Source: Escherichia coli
GTDB lineage: Bacteria > Pseudomonadota > Gammaproteobacteria > Enterobacterales > Enterobacteriaceae
Reading direction: 5' to 3' (one strand)
Length of the DNA stretch: 43,500 nucleotides
Assembly (NCBI RefSeq): GCF_003334255.1
Contig: NZ_QOWU01000047.1
The notes beneath the pieces were generated by a model. That model did no database searches and had not been told where the DNA came from. It saw only the letters and a list, made by a program, of their open reading frames with translations. The position numbers were made by a program, and so were the translations under genes. How positions within the stretch are numbered: the stretch's first letter is position 1; each line of letters begins with the position of its first letter. Shown here one piece after another: positions 25,672 to 33,461 of this stretch.

Positions 25672-26054
25672 ACGAGGACTCCTGCGAGAAGTGAAAGCAC
25701 GACAGTAATAACAAAGGAGATTTTGGCGGAGCGTTTACCCGCTTCGAATGTTTCTTCCAGATAGCCAAAATCCATCATCATGTGGCGAATACCTACGACG
25801 ACGTGATACGCCAGAGCGGTAAGGATGCCCCACATGATAAATTTGACGAAGAAGCTGCCCATAATCGCGGAAGCTTGCTCGAAACCTTCAGGGGAAGAGA
25901 GGCTGGTACCCAGAAGCCACAGCAGGATGCCCACTGCAACAAAGGTGATCACACCGGAAACGCGATGGAGAATGGACGCTATCGCCGTGATGGGGAACCG
26001 GATGGTCTGTAGGTCCAGATTAACAGGTCTTTGTTTTTTCACATTTCTTATCAT
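25665..26054 (-). CDS. sdhC: Succinate dehydrogenase cytochrome b556 subunit
   Basis: Hydrophobic [37 protein letters not shown]...; start set at the MIRNV Met (129 aa); an in-frame Met 5 codons upstream (26069) is an alternative start. Confidence 0.92.
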
Positions 26055-26762
26055 GAATAACGCCCACATGCTGTTCTTATTATTCCCTGGGGACTACGGG
26101 CACAGAGGTTAACTTTCTGTTACCTGGAGACGTCGGGATTTCCTTCCTCCGGTCTGCTTGCGGGTCAGACAGCGTCCTTTCTATAACTGCGCGTCATGCA
26201 AAACACTGCTTCCAGATGCGAAAACGACACGTTACAACGCTGGGTGGCTCGGGATTGCAGGGTGTTCCGGAGACCTGGCGGCAGTATAGGCTGTTCACAA
26301 AATCATTACAATTAACCTACATATAGTTTGTCGGGTTTTATCCTGAACAGTGATCCAGGTCACGATAACAACATTTATTTAATTTTTAATCATCTAATTT
26401 GACAATCATTCAACAAAGTTGTTACAAACATTACCAGGAAAAGCATATAATGCGTAAAAGTTATGAAGTCGGTATTTCACCTAAGATTAACTTATGTAAC
26501 AGTGTGGAAGTATTGACCAATTCATTCGGGACAGTTATTAGTGGTAGACAAGTTTAATAATTCGGATTGCTAAGTACTTGATTCGCCATTTATTCGTCAT
26601 CAATGGATCCTTTACCTGCAAGCGCCCAGAGCTCTGTACCCAGGTTTTCCCCTCTTTCACAGAGCGGCGAGCCAAATAAAAAACGGGTAAAGCCAGGTTG
26701 ATGTGCGAAGGCAAATTTAAGTTCCGGCAGTCTTACGCAATAAGGCGCTAAGGAGACCTTAA
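26055..26762. promoter_or_regulatory. Divergent gltA / sdhCDAB-sucABCD intergenic control region
   Basis: ~700-bp non-coding region between divergently oriented sdhC and gltA, AT-rich in its centre; gltA Shine-Dalgarno TAAGGAGA at 26749-26756. Confidence 0.7.
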
Positions 26763-28046
26763 ATGGCTGATACAAAAGCAAAACTCACCCTCAACGGGGA
26801 TACAGCTGTTGAACTGGATGTGCTGAAAGGCACGCTGGGTCAAGATGTTATTGATATCCGTACTCTCGGTTCAAAAGGTGTGTTCACCTTTGACCCAGGC
26901 TTCACTTCAACCGCATCCTGCGAATCTAAAATTACTTTTATTGATGGTGATGAAGGTATTTTGCTGCACCGCGGTTTCCCGATCGATCAGCTGGCGACCG
27001 ATTCTAACTACCTGGAAGTTTGTTACATCCTGCTGAATGGTGAAAAACCGACTCAGGAACAGTATGACGAATTTAAAACTACGGTGACCCGTCATACCAT
27101 GATCCACGAGCAGATTACCCGTCTGTTCCATGCTTTCCGTCGCGACTCGCATCCAATGGCAGTCATGTGTGGTATTACCGGCGCGCTGGCGGCGTTCTAT
27201 CACGACTCGCTGGATGTTAACAATCCTCGTCACCGTGAAATTGCCGCGTTCCGCCTGCTGTCGAAAATGCCGACCATGGCCGCGATGTGTTACAAGTATT
27301 CCATTGGTCAGCCATTTGTTTACCCGCGCAACGATCTCTCCTACGCCGGTAACTTCCTGAATATGATGTTCTCCACGCCGTGCGAACCGTATGAAGTTAA
27401 TCCGATTCTGGAACGTGCTATGGACCGTATTCTGATCCTGCACGCTGACCATGAACAGAACGCCTCTACCTCCACCGTGCGTACCGCTGGCTCTTCGGGT
27501 GCGAACCCGTTTGCCTGTATCGCAGCAGGTATTGCTTCACTGTGGGGACCTGCGCACGGCGGTGCTAACGAAGCGGCGCTGAAAATGCTGGAAGAAATCA
27601 GCTCCGTTAAACACATTCCGGAATTTGTTCGTCGTGCGAAAGACAAAAATGATTCTTTCCGCCTGATGGGCTTCGGTCACCGCGTGTACAAAAATTACGA
27701 CCCGCGCGCCACCGTAATGCGTGAAACCTGCCATGAAGTGCTGAAAGAGCTGGGCACGAAGGATGACCTGCTGGAAGTGGCTATGGAGCTGGAAAACATC
27801 GCGCTGAACGACCCGTACTTTATCGAGAAGAAACTGTACCCGAACGTCGATTTCTACTCTGGTATCATCCTGAAAGCGATGGGTATTCCGTCTTCCATGT
27901 TCACCGTCATTTTCGCAATGGCACGTACCGTTGGCTGGATCGCCCACTGGAGCGAAATGCACAGTGACGGTATGAAGATTGCCCGTCCGCGTCAGCTGTA
28001 TACAGGATATGAAAAACGCGACTTTAAAAGCGATATCAAGCGTTAA
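26763..28046 (+). CDS. gltA: Citrate synthase (type II, hexameric)
   Basis: 427-aa [50 protein letters not shown]... with GFGHRVYK active-site motif. Confidence 0.97.
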
Positions 28047-28074
28047 TGGTTGATTGCTAAGTTGTAAATATTTT

Positions 28075-28106
28075 AACCCGCCGTTCATATGGCGGGTTGA
28101 TTTTTA
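28075..28106 (+). terminator. Rho-independent terminator of gltA
   Basis: Hairpin aacccgcc-gttcatat-ggcgggtt followed by gattttta, 29 nt after the gltA stop. Confidence 0.8.
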
Positions 28107-28435
28107 TATGCCTAAACACAAAAAATTGTAAAAATAAAATCCATTAACAGACCTATATAGATATTTAAAAAGAATAGAACAGCTCAAATTATCAGCAACC
28201 CAATACTTTCAATTAAAAACTTCATGGTAGTCGCATTTATAACCCTATGAAAATGACGTCTATCTATACCCCCCTATATTTTATTCATCATACAACAAAT
28301 TCATGATACCAATAATTTAGTTTTGCATTTAATAAAACTAACAATATTTTTAAGCAAAACTAAAAACTAGCAATAATCAAATACGATATTCTGGCGTAGC
28401 TATACCCCTATTCTATATCCTTAAAGGACTCTGTT
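28107..28435. promoter_or_regulatory. Strongly AT-rich upstream region of the ybgD fimbrial operon (candidate nucleoid-protein-silenced promoter)
   Basis: ~330 bp of very low GC content with multiple A/T tracts immediately upstream of ybgD. Confidence 0.5.
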
Positions 28436-29002
28436 ATGTTTAAAGGACAAAAAACATTGGCCGCACTGGCCGTATCTCTGCTGTTCACTGCACCTGTTTA
28501 TGCTGCTGATGAAGGTTCTGGCGAAATTCACTTTAAGGGGGAGGTTATTGAAGCACCTTGTGAAATTCATCCAGAAGATATTGATAAAAACATAGATCTT
28601 GGACAAGTCACGACAACCCATATAAACCGGGAGCATCATAGCAATAAAGTGGCCGTCGACATTCGCTTGATCAACTGTGATCTGCCTGCTTCTGACAACG
28701 GTAGCGGAATGCCGGTATCCAAAGTTGGCGTAACCTTCGATAGCACGGCTAAGACAACTGGTGCTACGCCTTTGTTGAGCAACACCAGTGCAGGCGAAGC
28801 AACTGGGGTCGGTGTACGACTGATGGACAAAAATGACGGTAACATCGTATTAGGTTCAGCCGCGCCAGATCTTGACCTGGATGCAAGCTCATCAGAACAG
28901 ACGCTGAACTTTTTCGCCTGGATGGAACAAATTGATAATGCAGTCGATGTCACGGCAGGTGAAGTAACCGCTAACGCAACCTACGTGCTGGATTATAAAT
29001 AA
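28436..29002 (+). CDS. ybgD: Fimbrial major subunit-like protein (type 1 pilin family)
   Basis: 188-aa ORF with signal peptide (MFKGQKTLAALAVSLLFTAPVYA) and pilin-like C-terminal beta-strand (ANATYVLDYK). Confidence 0.88.
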   Translation: MFKGQKTLAALAVSLLFTAPVYAADEGSGEIHFKGEVIEAPCEIHPEDIDKNIDLGQVTTTHINREHHSNKVAVDIRLINCDLPASDNGSGMPVSKVGVTFDSTAKTTGATPLLSNTSAGEATGVGVRLMDKNDGNIVLGSAAPDLDLDASSSEQTLNFFAWMEQIDNAVDVTAGEVTANATYVLDYK

Positions 29003-29052
29003 GTATTATTTTGGCGGCATCATCGCCGCCTTTCATAAAATATTTATCAGGT

Positions 29053-31509
29053 ATGGACACCGTGAATATTTATCGACTCTCTTTTGTATCCTGCCTGGTC
29101 ATGGCGATGCCTTGCGCAATGGCGGTCGAATTCAATCTGAATGTTCTCGATAAATCAATGCGCGACCGCATTGATATTTCATTATTAAAGGAAAAAGGAG
29201 TCATTGCTCCCGGTGAATATTTTGTTAGCGTTGCGGTGAATAACAACAAAATCAGTAATGGGCAAAAAATTAACTGGCAAAAAAAGGGTGACAAAACCAT
29301 TCCACGCATCAATGATTCACTGGTCGATAAATTTGGTTTAAAACCAGATATCCGTCAGTCCTTGCCACAGATAGATCGGTGTATTGATTTCAGTTCCCGA
29401 CCTGAAATGCTCTTCAATTTCGATCAAGCCAATCAGCAACTGAATATTAGTATTCCGCAAGCCTGGCTGGCGTGGCACTCAGAAAACTGGGCTCCCCCCT
29501 CTACATGGAAAGAAGGTGTTGCCGGTGTCCTGATGGATTACAACTTGTTTGCCAGCAGCTACCGCCCACAGGACGGCAGCAGCAGCACTAACCTGAATGC
29601 CTACGGTACCGCCGGAATTAACGCCGGGGCATGGCGCTTACGCAGTGATTACCAGCTTAATAAGACCGATAGCGAAGATAACCATGACCAGTCAGGCGGA
29701 ATATCGCGCACCTATCTTTTTCGTCCATTACCGCAATTAGGCTCTAAGTTAACCCTCGGCGAAACCGATTTCAGTTCCAATATTTTCGATGGTTTTTCTT
29801 ATACCGGCGCGGCACTGGCGAGTGACGATCGAATGTTACCGTGGGAGCTGCGTGGCTACGCCCCACAAATTAGCGGTATTGCACAGACCAATGCCACGGT
29901 GACGATCAGTCAATCAGGCCGCGTCATTTACCAGAAAAAAGTCCCGCCAGGCCCGTTTATTATTGATGACCTCAATCAGTCTGTTCAGGGCACGCTGGAT
30001 GTCAAAGTGACGGAAGAAGATGGTCGGGTGAACAATTTCCAGGTTTCGGCAGCATCGACGCCCTTCCTGACTCGCCAGGGACAGGTTCGCTATAAATTGG
30101 CCGCGGGTCAGCCACGGCCTTCCATGTCACATCAAACTGAAAATGAAACCTTTTTTAGCAATGAAGTTTCCTGGGGGATGCTCTCAAACACCTCGCTGTA
30201 CGGCGGCCTGCTGATTTCTGATGATGACTACCATTCTGCCGCAATGGGTATCGGGCAAAATATGCTGTGGCTTGGCGCACTGTCCTTTGATGTCACCTGG
30301 GCCAGTAGCCATTTTGATACTCAGCAGGACGAGCGGGGCTTAAGCTACCGTTTTAATTACAGCAAACAAGTGGATGCCACCAACAGCACGATTTCGCTCG
30401 CCGCTTATCGCTTCTCAGATCGTCATTTTCACAGCTACGCCAACTATCTGGATCACAAATACAACGACAGCGATGCGCAGGACGAAAAACAGACGATCAG
30501 CTTATCCGTGGGCCAACCGATTACCCCACTAAACCTCAATCTTTACGCCAACCTGCTACATCAAACCTGGTGGAATGCAGACGCCTCCACGACCGCCAAC
30601 ATCACAGCAGGTTTTAATGTTGATATTGGTGACTGGAGAGATATCTCGATTTCGACGTCATTCAATACGACCCACTACGAAGATAAAGATCGCGACAACC
30701 AGATTTATCTGTCGATTTCGCTCCCCTTCGGTAACGGTGGTCGGGTTGGCTATGACATGCAAAACAGTAGCCACAGCACCATACACCGCATGTCGTGGAA
30801 CGATACGCTGGATGAACGTAATAGCTGGGGCATGTCTGCCGGACTGCAATCCGATCGTCCGGACAATGGAGCCCAGGTGAGCGGTAACTATCAGCACCTG
30901 AGTTCAGCGGGTGAGTGGGATATTTCTGGTACCTATGCCGCCAGTGATTACAGTTCCGTCAGCAGCAGCTGGAGCGGTTCTTTCACCGCAACCCAATATG
31001 GTGCAGCATTTCATCGCCGCAGCTCCACCAATGAACCACGCCTGATGGTCAGCACCGATGGCGTGGCAGATATTCCGGTTCAGGGCAATCTCGACTACAC
31101 CAACCATTTTGGCATTGCGGTGGTGCCGTTGATTTCCAGTTACCAGCCTTCCACCGTGGCGGTGAACATGAATGACTTACCCGACGGCGTAACAGTTGCA
31201 GAAAACGTCATCAAGGAAACATGGATTGAAGGCGCGATAGGTTACAAATCACTGGCTTCCCGTTCCGGTAAAGACGTTAACGTCATCATACGCAACGCCA
31301 GCGGTCAGTTCCCTCCCCTCGGTGCGGATATCCGCCAGGATGACAGCGGCATTAGCGTGGGTATGGTTGGCGAGGAAGGACATGCCTGGTTAAGCGGTGT
31401 CGCTGAAAATCAACTGTTTACCGTGGTCTGGGGTGAGCAAAGCTGCATTATTCATCTGCCAGAACGTCTGGAAGACACGACCAAACGCCTGATTTTACCT
31501 TGTCATTAA
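29053..31509 (+). CDS. ybgQ: Fimbrial outer-membrane usher protein (FimD/PapC family)
   Basis: Large ORF with usher-family architecture; start ambiguous (ATG at 29053, GTG at 29062, or upstream in-frame ATG at 29011). Confidence 0.88.
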   Translation: MDTVNIYRLSFVSCLVMAMPCAMAVEFNLNVLDKSMRDRIDISLLKEKGVIAPGEYFVSVAVNNNKISNGQKINWQKKGDKTIPRINDSLVDKFGLKPDIRQSLPQIDRCIDFSSRPEMLFNFDQANQQLNISIPQAWLAWHSENWAPPSTWKEGVAGVLMDYNLFASSYRPQDGSSSTNLNAYGTAGINAGAWRLRSDYQLNKTDSEDNHDQSGGISRTYLFRPLPQLGSKLTLGETDFSSNIFDGFSYTGAALASDDRMLPWELRGYAPQISGIAQTNATVTISQSGRVIYQKKVPPGPFIIDDLNQSVQGTLDVKVTEEDGRVNNFQVSAASTPFLTRQGQVRYKLAAGQPRPSMSHQTENETFFSNEVSWGMLSNTSLYGGLLISDDDYHSAAMGIGQNMLWLGALSFDVTWASSHFDTQQDERGLSYRFNYSKQVDATNSTISLAAYRFSDRHFHSYANYLDHKYNDSDAQDEKQTISLSVGQPITPLNLNLYANLLHQTWWNADASTTANITAGFNVDIGDWRDISISTSFNTTHYEDKDRDNQIYLSISLPFGNGGRVGYDMQNSSHSTIHRMSWNDTLDERNSWGMSAGLQSDRPDNGAQVSGNYQHLSSAGEWDISGTYAASDYSSVSSSWSGSFTATQYGAAFHRRSSTNEPRLMVSTDGVADIPVQGNLDYTNHFGIAVVPLISSYQPSTVAVNMNDLPDGVTVAENVIKETWIEGAIGYKSLASRSGKDVNVIIRNASGQFPPLGADIRQDDSGISVGMVGEEGHAWLSGVAENQLFTVVWGEQSCIIHLPERLEDTTKRLILPCH

Positions 31510-31523
31510 TTAAGGAAAAGAGA

Positions 31524-32252
31524 ATGACATTTATTAAAGGATTACCCTTAATGTTGTTAACCATCAGCTTGGGTTGCAATGCTGCGGTGCAACCCGATCG
31601 CACACGCATTGTGTTTAACGCCAATGACAAAGCCACCAGCCTGCGTATCGAAAACCAAAGTGACAAACTGCCTTATCTTGCTTATTCCTGGATAGAAAAT
31701 GAAAAAGGGGAGAAAAGCGATGCTCTTCTGGTCGCTTTGCCCCCTATTCAACGTCTGGAACCGAAAGCGACATCGCAGGTGCGGGTTGTGAAACAAGCCT
31801 CAACCACACAATTACCTGGCGATCGCGAAACGCTATTTTTCTACAATATGCGCGAAATTCCTCCCGCTCCGGATAAAAGCAGCGACCATGCGATACTTCA
31901 GGTCGCTATTCAAAGTCGTATTAAATTGTTCTGGCGACCGGCTGCATTACGCAAGAAAGCAGGAGAAAAGGTCGAACTGCAGTTACAGGTCAGCCAGCAG
32001 GGCAACCAACTGACACTGAAAAATCCTACCGCGTATTATCTGACCATTGCCTATCTGGGGAGAAATGAAAAAGGCGTTCTCCCAGGCTTCAAAACCGTGA
32101 TGGTTGCACCTTTTAGTACGGTCAACACAAACACCGGAAGTTATAGCGGCAGCCAGTTTTATCTCGGTTACATGGATGATTACGGCGCATTACGCATGAC
32201 GACGCTCAACTGCAGCGGACAATGCCGTTTACAAGCAGTGGAGGCGAAATGA
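31524..32252 (+). CDS. ybgP: Fimbrial periplasmic chaperone (PapD/FimC family)
   Basis: 242-aa ORF from the Met preceded by AAGGAAAAGAGA; signal peptide plus immunoglobulin-like chaperone domains. Confidence 0.9.
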
Positions 32253-33310
32253 GTGCTGGCAAGGGATTGTTGCTCGTCATCTGCCTGTTATTTCTGCCGT
32301 TGAAGTCTGCAATGGCGCTGAACTGCTATTTTGGTACATCTGGTGGCGCAGTAGAAAAATCAGAAGCGATTCAACCGTTTGCTGTACCAGGCAATGCCAA
32401 ACCCGGTGATAAGATCTGGGAATCTGACGATATTAAAATTCCCGTCTATTGTGACAACAATACCAACGGCAACTTTGAAAGCGAGCATGTCTACGCCTGG
32501 GTAAACCCCTATCCGGGGGTGCAGGATCGTTATTATCAACTCGGCGTGACATACAACGGTGTCGATTACGATGCCAGTCTGGGAAAAAGTCGCATCGACA
32601 CTAACCAGTGTATCGACAGTAAGAACATTGATATTTATACCCCTGAGCAGATCATCGCGATGGGATGGCAGAACAAAATTTGCTCGGGCGATCCCGCTAA
32701 TATTCATATGTCGCGTACCTTTCTCGCTCGCATGCGGTTATACGTCAAAATACGAGAAATGCCGCCGCATGATTATCAAAGTACGCTTAGCGACTATATC
32801 GTCGTGCAATTTGACGGTGCCGGTAGCGTTAACGAAGACCCTACTGCCCAAAACCTGAAATATCATATTACTGGTCTGGAAAACATTCGCGTGCTGGATT
32901 GCAGCGTCAATTTTTCCATTTCACCGGAAACACAGGTGATTGATTTTGGTAAATTTAATTTGCTGGATATACGTCGCCACACAATGTCGAAAACGTTCAG
33001 TATTAAAACGACCAAGAGCCAAAACGATCAATGCACCGACGGATTTAAAGTCAGTTCCTCCTTTTATACCGAAGAAACGTTGGTTGAAGAAGATAAAGCA
33101 TTGTTGATTGGTAATGGTCTGAAGCTACGTTTACTGGATGAAAACGCCTCGCCTTATACCTTCAATAAATATGCTGAATACGCCGATTTCACCAGTGACA
33201 TGTTGGTCTACGAAAAAACCTATACGGCTGAACTTTCGTCCATTCCAGGCACCCCCATCGAGGCTGGCCCCTTCGATACAGTGGTGCTTTTTAAGATTAA
33301 CTATAACTGA
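32249..33310 (+). CDS. ybgO: Fimbrial adhesin-like protein (putative tip adhesin)
   Basis: 353-aa ORF from [17 protein letters not shown]... (signal peptide); start overlaps ybgP stop (ATGA); last gene of the chaperone-usher operon. Confidence 0.85.
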
Positions 33311-33318
33311 TTTACCAT

Positions 33319-33352
33319 GATGCCCTTTGCCGCCGGAAAGGGCATCTCTTTC
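33319..33352 (+). terminator. Putative terminator of the ybgDQPO operon
   Basis: Inverted repeat gatgcccttt-gccgccgg-aaagggcatc followed by tctttc, 9 nt after the ybgO stop. Confidence 0.5.
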
Positions 33353-33461
33353 AGAAAATTGCTGATTTTCCCCTTTTCCTTGATTGCTGTTATTTTTTCC
33401 TGGCCCAGCTTTCTTTATGCTGTATCGATACACCAAAGAGAAAATAATGAGGGAGCGAAGG

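Follow-up and report, generated by a model that had tools for sequence, protein, structure and literature searches.

The ybgDQPO locus of Escherichia coli: a chaperone-usher fimbrial cluster and its allelic variation between gltA and abrB

A fimbrial operon that appears to be silent in laboratory culture raises an obvious question. Is it a fimbria that is used in nature, or is it a relic, a recent import, or a gene set held under a switch? Here, the question is asked of positions 28047-33352 of a 43,500-nucleotide stretch of E. coli DNA, the whole of which is called "the window" below. This segment carries the chaperone-usher operon ybgDQPO of E. coli, with gltA and abrB on either side. We hold with high confidence that it is a classical chaperone-usher fimbrial cluster, belonging to the pi clade and silent under laboratory conditions.

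As a discovery this has, of course, little weight. The operon is already known: it has a name and a place in the classification, it has served in deletion, overexpression and assembly studies, and the PDB already contains the receptor-binding domain of YbgO. The most useful lead is the population pattern of the promoter and pilin alleles.

Identity and parts of the operon

The segment opens with the base that directly follows the stop codon of gltA (28047), ends slightly beyond a hairpin that follows the last gene (33352), and holds four open reading frames, all on the plus strand in the ORF list of the window. A K-12 strain in RefSeq has identical gene coordinates, with the locus offset by +25046, and names the genes ybgD, ybgQ, ybgP and ybgO. 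Both these names and the synteny agree with the identity proposed in the initial annotation. Across 11.3 kb around the operon, a single mismatch, at 29305, separates the window from K-12 NBRC 3301. The roles first proposed (pilin, usher, chaperone and tip adhesin) are likewise borne out, by domain searches and by structure models of the adhesin. The coding part of the operon has 48.0% GC, only slightly lower than the 51.2% of the whole window. An Rfam search of 26000-34600 at a permissive threshold returned zero RNA families.

The mechanical ORF list offered longer, TTG-started frames for ybgQ (from 29011), ybgP (from 31500) and ybgO (from 32222). These were dropped in preference for the annotated ATG starts, each of which has a Shine-Dalgarno sequence.

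The first gene, ybgD (28436-29002, plus strand), encodes a major pilin subunit of 188 amino acids that matches the Pfam Fimbrial family (PF00419, E 1e-31) and carries the RefSeq product name "ybgD fimbrial protein." The protein has a signal peptide, a Cys42/Cys81 pair, a penultimate tyrosine and a C-terminus ending in ...VLDYK. Overexpression of BolA has been reported to induce ybgD (PMC4337573).

Between ybgD and ybgQ lies a GC-rich hairpin (29013-29030, plus strand; GGCGGC-loop-GCCGCC followed by UUUC; -13.1 kcal/mol, z -3.6). Stem-loops of different sequence occupy the same position behind the pilin gene in all five homologous operons that were folded (O145:H28, NY1601, Enterobacter, E. coli yqi and Salmonella). 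Their z scores run from -2.1 to -4.4 in four of the five; that of E. coli yqi, at -1.5, is indistinguishable from shuffled sequence. The ybgD hairpin may serve as a partial terminator or as an mRNA-stabilising 3' structure. By attenuation, it would probably lift the level of pilin mRNA over that of usher mRNA.

Next comes ybgQ (29053-31509, plus strand), which encodes an outer-membrane usher of 818 amino acids. Its N-terminal, pore and C-terminal domains are complete (Pfam PapC_N, E 1e-32; Usher, E 6e-189; PapC_C, E 3e-11), and assembly of YbgQ has been found to depend on TAM (PMC11014939). The one mismatch to K-12 falls in this gene, where the C at 29305 turns codon 85 from TGC into CGC and so makes the usher of the window Cys85Arg. 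Cys85 is kept in all other YbgQ alleles and homologues examined, and it aligns with a cysteine in FimD and in Caf1A. With the alignment of YbgQ to FimD, we take the corresponding disulfide of the usher N-terminal domain to be Cys63-Cys90 of FimD; a literature search for this disulfide found no explicit statement. The base present in the window occurs in only three of 5426 complete genomes. Because an arginine stands at an otherwise invariant cysteine, the usher may be impaired in the source strain, and function observed in K-12 may therefore not transfer to that strain. Cys85Arg could be a natural loss-of-function allele.

After a 14-nt gap, with no overlap, ybgQ is followed by ybgP (31524-32252, plus strand), which encodes a periplasmic chaperone of 242 amino acids (Pfam PapD_N, E 2e-34; PapD_C, E 7e-14). 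Here, the spacing changes: ybgP and ybgO overlap by the four nucleotides ATGA, with a GGAGG Shine-Dalgarno sequence 5 nt upstream. The overlapping arrangement is retained in all alleles and homologues examined. It is consistent with the translational coupling of the two genes that had been claimed, and the overlap probably ties synthesis of YbgO to synthesis of YbgP.

The last gene, ybgO (32249-33310, plus strand), encodes a two-domain tip adhesin of 353 amino acids. Its receptor-binding domain (residues 24-217, nucleotides 32318-32899, plus strand) has the same span as the constructs in PDB entries 9RX0 and 9RWW. Its pilin domain (residues 218-353, nucleotides 32900-33307, plus strand) is the part to which the Pfam Fimbrial match is confined. 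A search of NCBIfam with YbgO matched no family. Structure prediction, which the initial annotation had suggested for this protein, gave confident AF2 models (pLDDT 88 and 92) that resemble adhesins: the structural matches include LpfD, FimH, CupB6, PapG, MrkD and UclD, and the best of them are chaperone-usher adhesins with two domains, or the receptor-binding domains of such proteins. The models are, of course, superseded by the solved receptor-binding domain in 9RX0 and 9RWW. A terminator-like hairpin lies 3' of ybgO (33319-33346, plus strand; -17.6 kcal/mol, z -2.8); the T-run behind it is weak, and a terminator scan made no call there.

Promoter region and the proposed route to a fibre

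On its left, the variable ybg island is bounded by the intrinsic terminator hairpin of gltA (28073-28100, plus strand; a 12-bp stem followed by a T-run; -19.5 kcal/mol, z -4.9). Beyond it stretches the promoter and leader region of ybgD (28107-28435, plus strand). The claim that about 330 bp upstream of the operon are very AT-rich holds: this region has 27.7% GC against 51.2% for the whole window, which places it among the lowest 0.2% of all 329-bp windows, the minimum lying at 28097. Upstream regions have 27-35% GC in every homologue operon, making AT-richness a trait of the family. Between allele classes of E. coli, the spacer retains 53-76% identity.

A consensus scan predicts a sigma-70 promoter, TAAACA-16-TAAAAT, at 28113-28140 on the plus strand, some 295 nt ahead of the start of ybgD, and a further promoter-like site at 28253-28280. 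Nine promoter-like matches were observed in the region, against 9.2 expected in shuffled sequence. The same TAAACA/TAAAAT hexamers are listed for ybgD among the "constitutive promoters" of RpoD, and genomic SELEX in the same study assigns to the spacer between gltA and ybgD a site for the RpoD holoenzyme as well as one for H-NS (PMC3946193). Transcription most likely starts at this weak sigma-70 promoter, just past the gltA terminator, and the transcript would cross an AT-rich leader of about 295 nt before it reaches ybgD.

Scanning the gltA-ybgD spacer for the high-affinity 10-bp H-NS motif TCGATAAATT, with up to two mismatches allowed, gave no match. As the motif scan is uninformative, the statement that H-NS binds the spacer is taken from the published SELEX. 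The silencing by a nucleoid protein that had been proposed for the locus finds support in this SELEX mark and in PMC3559732, which, in a passage citing Korea et al. (2010), has H-NS repressing cryptic fimbriae in commensal E. coli. H-NS seated on the spacer would, then, silence the operon.

Once expressed, the four Ybg products, all with signal peptides, would pass to the periplasm, as homology with Pap and type 1 pili suggests. There, YbgP would fold and cap YbgD and YbgO by donor-strand complementation. The order of assembly, drawn by analogy with those pili, would have the outer-membrane pore of YbgQ recruit the YbgP-YbgO complex before any other, with YbgD then polymerised beneath it by donor-strand exchange. 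The outcome would be a fibre that presents the receptor-binding domain of YbgO at its tip. The refuting test set in the initial annotation, constitutive expression, has according to PMC6033998, which cites Korea et al. (2010), been carried out in K-12: forced expression increased adhesion to bladder cells.

Age and alleles of the locus

In 4763 of 5426 E. coli genomes (88%), the operon sits at one and the same gltA-flanked position. At least 80% of the query is covered in 4154 of the 5426; approximately 609 genomes have partial matches, and approximately 660 have no match. E. marmotae has the operon there too, as does a more distant enterobacterium with a gltA of only 85% identity. K-12-type strains have no annotated integrase, tRNA or IS element within the locus or on either side of it. 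The shared position across genomes and relatives, together with the absence of mobility genes, argues that the locus is old at this site. Thus, the horizontal acquisition that the initial annotation had invoked survives only in part. A recent import is contradicted by the wide use of one site without mobility genes, while the alleles do show heavy recombination.

The alleles themselves are sharply set off from their surroundings. Directly past the gltA stop codon, identity to other strains falls from about 99% to 50-70%, and E. coli strains that diverge by 1-2% in gltA diverge by 20-25% inside the island. The cassette of promoter and ybgD found in the window recurs with at least 99% identity in 925 of the 5426 genomes and with 60-80% identity in about 3820, with almost none between. 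Values of dS between allele classes exceed 1, which is approximately as deep as between genera. For all four genes, dN/dS is 0.03-0.13, even where dS exceeds 1; long-term purifying selection therefore acts on the operon.

We suggest, tentatively and as the less probable side of the matter, that the gltA-abrB interval is a hypervariable island with sharp borders, where the promoter and leader are exchanged together with ybgD, as a cassette, among a few discrete and ancient allele classes. In the literature searched, no description of such discrete ancient cassette alleles was found for ybg. If the pattern is true, it would mean that a supposedly cryptic fimbria is expressed in nature and that some selective agent there, be it host immunity, phage or receptor diversity, sees it. 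Taken together, the discrete ancient promoter and pilin alleles, the strong purifying selection and the losses that recur in certain lineages speak for a fimbria that is put to use in nature. Studies of host association such as PMC12547504 could gain in sharpness if strains were typed by allele class instead of being scored for presence or absence.

One might, of course, see in the operon a decaying relic that has fallen silent through disuse and whose usher is already inactivated in the source strain. Silence in laboratory culture (PMC3559732) fits this account, as does its description by Wurpel et al. as "not intact in many strains." In one examined strain (L004), only a 427-bp remnant of the 3' end of ybgO is left, similar partial matches occur in other records, and several E. 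coli strains carry IS1 within the locus or next to it. The arginine at position 85 of YbgQ, replacing a cysteine conserved in all homologues, points the same way for the window. However, decay is hard to reconcile with the low dN/dS between allele classes at such depth, or with frames that are intact for all four genes, both in the window and in five further loci examined from E. coli and E. marmotae, among which only the E. marmotae ybgO is shorter. Function has also been reported on forced expression in K-12, in the citation given above, and Cys85Arg is no evidence of general decay because it is a single recent SNP confined to three genomes. We therefore regard the relic as unlikely.

Recent acquisition of the locus as a genomic island is more improbable still. 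The AT-rich flanking spacer, the excess of divergence within the locus over that in gltA, and the presence of closer Enterobacter and Salmonella homologues at another site, zupT-ribB, could be read as marks of such an arrival. Against this stand the gltA-flanked position in so many E. coli genomes and in both relatives, a coding GC (48%) near that of the window (51%), the want of integrase, tRNA and IS annotations in K-12-type strains, and the recurrence of AT-rich upstream regions throughout the family. A phase-variation switch, either an invertible promoter of the fim type or Dam/Lrp methylation of the pap type, would replace simple silencing as the control of expression; this we consider very improbable indeed. 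Many fimbrial operons are phase variable, including the pi-clade prototype pap, and short inverted repeats occur in the long ybgD leader. Yet the 389-bp gltA-ybgD spacer contains no GATC site and no convincing repeats of an invertible element. Its inverted repeats are just 10-16 nt long and mostly imperfect, and the sole perfect pair, of 11 nt, is by a rough estimate about what chance would supply in sequence so rich in AT. Nor is any recombinase gene, or any gene for a regulator like PapI or PapB, annotated in the locus.

Ybg among the fimbriae of the pi clade

Closest to the operon of the window is, of course, that of K-12 (ybgDQPO, alias ybgOPQD), which we take to be b0716-b0719. Genes, gene order, gltA and abrB flanks, and sequence are all alike; the two differ at codon 85 of ybgQ, which is TGC (Cys) in K-12 and CGC (Arg) in the window.

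Table 5 of PMC3032704 lists ybgDQPO under the pi clade, and published classification describes Ybg as a pi-clade, "core-associated" fimbria. Among NCBIfam families, the best ushers for YbgQ are StdB and the Stf/Ste type, while the best chaperones for YbgP are SteC, StfD and StdC. The best PDB match of the YbgQ N-terminal domain is PapC (E 1e-17). Together, the family matches, the PapC structure match and the published listing would place the Ybg usher in the pi clade, as drawn in the usher-based scheme of Nuccio and Baumler.

This placement bears on gene order, which had been called unusual because the usher precedes the chaperone. Such an order is normal for the pi clade. The order major subunit-usher-chaperone is found in the window and in all homologous loci (L007-L015, their context being drawn from exact-protein look-ups), and the full series subunit-usher-chaperone-adhesin in all eight homologous loci outside the E. 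coli ybg locus.

The pi-clade Std, Stf and Ste fimbriae of Salmonella provide the top NCBIfam families, with 637 bits for YbgQ against StdB and 183 bits for YbgP against SteC. Ybg is nevertheless a separate type, because these scores lie far under the curated cut-offs (637 versus 1289, for example).

Nearer in layout are the Yqi fimbriae, or ExPEC adhesin I (ygiL-yqiGHI), and the operons between zupT and ribB in Enterobacter and Salmonella. Like Ybg, these comprise a pilin, an usher, a chaperone and an adhesin of about 350 amino acids, and they share the overlapping junction of chaperone and adhesin genes, the AT-rich upstream region and the hairpin after the pilin gene. Unlike Ybg, they lie at another chromosomal site, zupT-ribB. 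The proteins of E. coli Yqi are only 37-44% identical to those of Ybg; those encoded at the yqi site in Salmonella and Enterobacter come closer, with 46-65%. The receptor-binding domains of the Yqi and Ybg adhesins are homologous. PDB entry 9RWU matches YbgO (E 8e-34); on our own reading, it has the same sequence as the N-domain of P0103, a YqiI-type protein.

The prototype of the clade, the P pilus encoded by pap, shares with Ybg a two-domain adhesin, and in pap, as in ybg, the usher gene (papC) stands ahead of the chaperone gene (papD). Pap alone has a tip fibrillum of PapK, PapE and PapF, a terminator subunit (PapH), the regulators PapI and PapB, and phase variation based on GATC sites. Ybg, in contrast, makes do with a single pilin and a single adhesin, and has neither a regulator gene nor a GATC site.

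Layout of the operon and its leader

Four consecutive open reading frames follow gltA (26763-28046) on the plus strand in the mechanical ORF list: ybgD (28436-29002), ybgQ (29053-31509), ybgP (31524-32252) and ybgO (32249-33310). The same stretch in a K-12 strain carries these genes in RefSeq, followed by abrB and nei; this is a known, named and previously studied operon. ybgP and ybgO overlap in ATGA, with GGAGG immediately 5', and the 14-nt gap between ybgQ and ybgP holds AAGGA. The coding part is 48.0% GC. A hairpin (33319-33346) follows ybgO, and the operon end claimed in the initial annotation (33352) lies directly beyond it. That annotation, made from the sequence alone, had described four genes, translational coupling of ybgP and ybgO, an AT-rich stretch and this end; the observation holds as written, as do the operon's identity, coordinates and general mechanism. 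In the sdhC-gltA spacer lies a 35-codon ORF (26450-26557, plus strand), a hypothetical protein in RefSeq; its counterpart in E. marmotae (positions 1196-1303 of locus L015) has a Pfam YbgU match.

The AT-rich stretch upstream of ybgD (28107-28435) is 27.7% GC, against 51.2% window-wide, and falls in the lowest 0.2% of 329-bp windows. At the start of the spacer stands the gltA terminator (28073-28100; fold -19.5 kcal/mol, z -4.9). A sigma-70-like site, TAAACA-16-TAAAAT (28113-28140), is predicted 13 nt past it. A genomic-SELEX catalogue of RpoD "constitutive promoters" gives the same hexamers for ybgD, together with an H-NS binding site in the gltA-ybgD spacer (PMC3946193). The cryptic fimbriae of commensal E. 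coli are repressed by H-NS, according to a passage in PMC3559732 that cites Korea et al. 2010, and ybgD is reported to be induced upon BolA overexpression (PMC4337573). The spacer has no GATC sites and no convincing repeats of an invertible element, the annotation of the locus lists neither a regulator nor a recombinase gene, and the ybg region matches no Rfam family. The initial annotation had named, as the experiment that might refute it, expression from a constitutive promoter. This is reported as already done: forced expression increased adhesion, by a secondary citation in a passage of PMC6033998 (citing Korea et al. 2010). A second strongly AT-rich stretch lies at about 9740-10376, with 329-bp windows below 33% GC; in matching genomes, mngB and cydA are among the annotated features of that half of the window.

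Between ybgD and ybgQ is a GC-rich hairpin (29013-29030; fold -13.1 kcal/mol, z -3.6). Two other alleles (O145:H28 and NY1601) and the yqi operon of E. coli, as well as the operons of Enterobacter and Salmonella, also have a stem-loop here, of unrelated sequence. Four of these five stem-loops have folds significantly more stable than those of shuffled sequences (z -2.1 to -4.4); that of E. coli yqi does not (z -1.5). In other fimbrial operons, pilin mRNA is favoured by a partial terminator or stabiliser. The ybgD-ybgQ hairpin is a candidate for such an element.

Allele divergence at a fixed site

Divergence among E. coli strains at ybg is extreme and sharply bounded. Against four other strains (loci L002, L003, L005 and L006), gltA is about 99% identical. 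Identity drops to 36-76% at the gltA stop codon and stays there across the spacer; shortly before abrB, at about 33420, it is back at 99-100%. In the comparison with E. coli C, the spacer and ybgD (28047-29030) are 56-79% identical; identity jumps to at least 97% at 29029, and ybgP, ybgO and abrB are 99.7-100% identical. This contrast implies that the spacer and ybgD were probably replaced as a cassette, with the gltA terminator at one edge and the ybgD-ybgQ hairpin at the other. In 5426 complete E. coli genomes, the identity of this segment to the window is bimodal (925 genomes at 99% or above, 9 at 80-99%, 3820 at 60-80%). Between allele classes dS is 1.2-2.1, with dN/dS of 0.03-0.13 in all four genes. 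The alleles are, to judge from their sequences, old and functional, not decaying pseudogenes. The cassette pattern is a modest lead.

The ybg region is matched in 4763 of the 5426 genomes, and at least 80% covered in 4154. Its operon is flanked by gltA and abrB in E. marmotae, and by gltA and nei on a contig with a gltA of just 85% identity to the E. coli gene. By this distribution, the operon is old at the site. As for horizontal acquisition, it holds for the locus solely as an ancient exchange of alleles at one fixed position.

The operon is lost in some E. coli strains. In strain ECO21 (L004, 4873-5393), a deletion of about 4.8 kb fuses the first 128 nt or so of the spacer to the final 393 nt of ybgO (in window terms, 28047-28174 joined to 32918), and the ybgO remnant bears the annotation "type 1 fimbrial protein," partial. 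The same partial-match pattern recurs in several other records, and IS1 lies in or beside the locus in several other genomes (H13, H30, H31). Wurpel et al. describe Ybg as "core-associated," though frequently incomplete, and as uncommon among uropathogenic strains.

The usher and the tip adhesin

In Pfam, YbgD matches Fimbrial (E 1e-31), YbgQ matches PapC_N, Usher (E 6e-189) and PapC_C, and YbgP matches PapD_N and PapD_C. Across 11.3 kb, the sole difference from K-12 is a C for T at 29305, which changes codon 85 of YbgQ from Cys to Arg (CGC). Every other allele and homologue examined has Cys here, and the window's base is found in only three of the 5426 genomes (G1/2, G6/7 and G8, which are related). 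Residue 85 aligns with the "PCL"-motif cysteine in the N-terminal domains of two solved ushers, FimD and Caf1A; Cys110, kept in the window, aligns with their second Cys. We take these two cysteines to be disulfide-bonded to each other in the N-terminal domain of ushers (Cys63-Cys90 in FimD), which the literature searched did not state explicitly; Cys110 is the likely partner of residue 85. With Arg at a conserved, putatively disulfide-forming position, the usher of this strain may be impaired despite an intact reading frame. This, too, is a modest lead.

YbgO matches no NCBIfam model, and its Pfam Fimbrial match is confined to residues 218-353. An AlphaFold2 model of YbgO from 37 homologues is confident (pLDDT 88). 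In Foldseek it best matches two-domain tip adhesins (LpfD, FimH, CupB6, CsuE and PapG); the C-terminal third resembles pilins such as PapA and FimA. The structure prediction suggested in the initial annotation is superseded by PDB entries. A sequence search of a 2026 PDB copy shows that 9RX0 and 9RWW span residues 24-217 of YbgO, from an E. coli allele that differs from the window's by five substitutions, and that 9RWU/9RWV and 9RWE hold related domains. The 9RWU sequence is, as we read it, exactly that of the N-domain of the YqiI-type protein P0103. These entries, titled simply "Fimbrial protein" or "Pilus assembly protein," are a set of solved receptor-binding domains from adhesins of the YbgO type and the related YqiI type; a literature search for their codes found no citing paper.

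Relatives and gene order

The closest NCBIfam ushers to YbgQ are Salmonella StdB and those of Stf/Ste type, and the closest chaperones to YbgP are SteC, StfD and StdC. PapC is the top solved-structure match of the YbgQ N-terminal domain, and ybgDQPO, ygiL-yqiGHI and yfc are classed as pi-type (PMC3032704).

Homologous operons were retrieved by exact-protein look-ups of YbgO homologues. The order Fimbrial, Usher, chaperone and an adhesin of about 350 amino acids is found in Enterobacter, Salmonella, E. coli yqi, E. marmotae and two further enterobacteria. Because all the four-gene homologous operons retrieved keep the usher before the chaperone, this is the rule of the family, and the order is not, as had been claimed, unusual. 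In a metagenome-derived relative (L014), the usher gene (3818-6139) is called as 773 amino acids only, with no PapC_C match; abrB is in two pieces, and a GntR-type regulator stands upstream in place of gltA.

The Enterobacter and Salmonella operons lie, like E. coli yqi, in the zupT-ribB interval (L007-L011). Their proteins are 46-65% identical to those of Ybg, whereas the E. coli Yqi proteins reach just 37-44%. Since the yqi-site operons of Salmonella and Enterobacter are closer to Ybg than is E. coli Yqi, the comparison suggests that ybg and yqi are paralogues of long standing whose history is complex.
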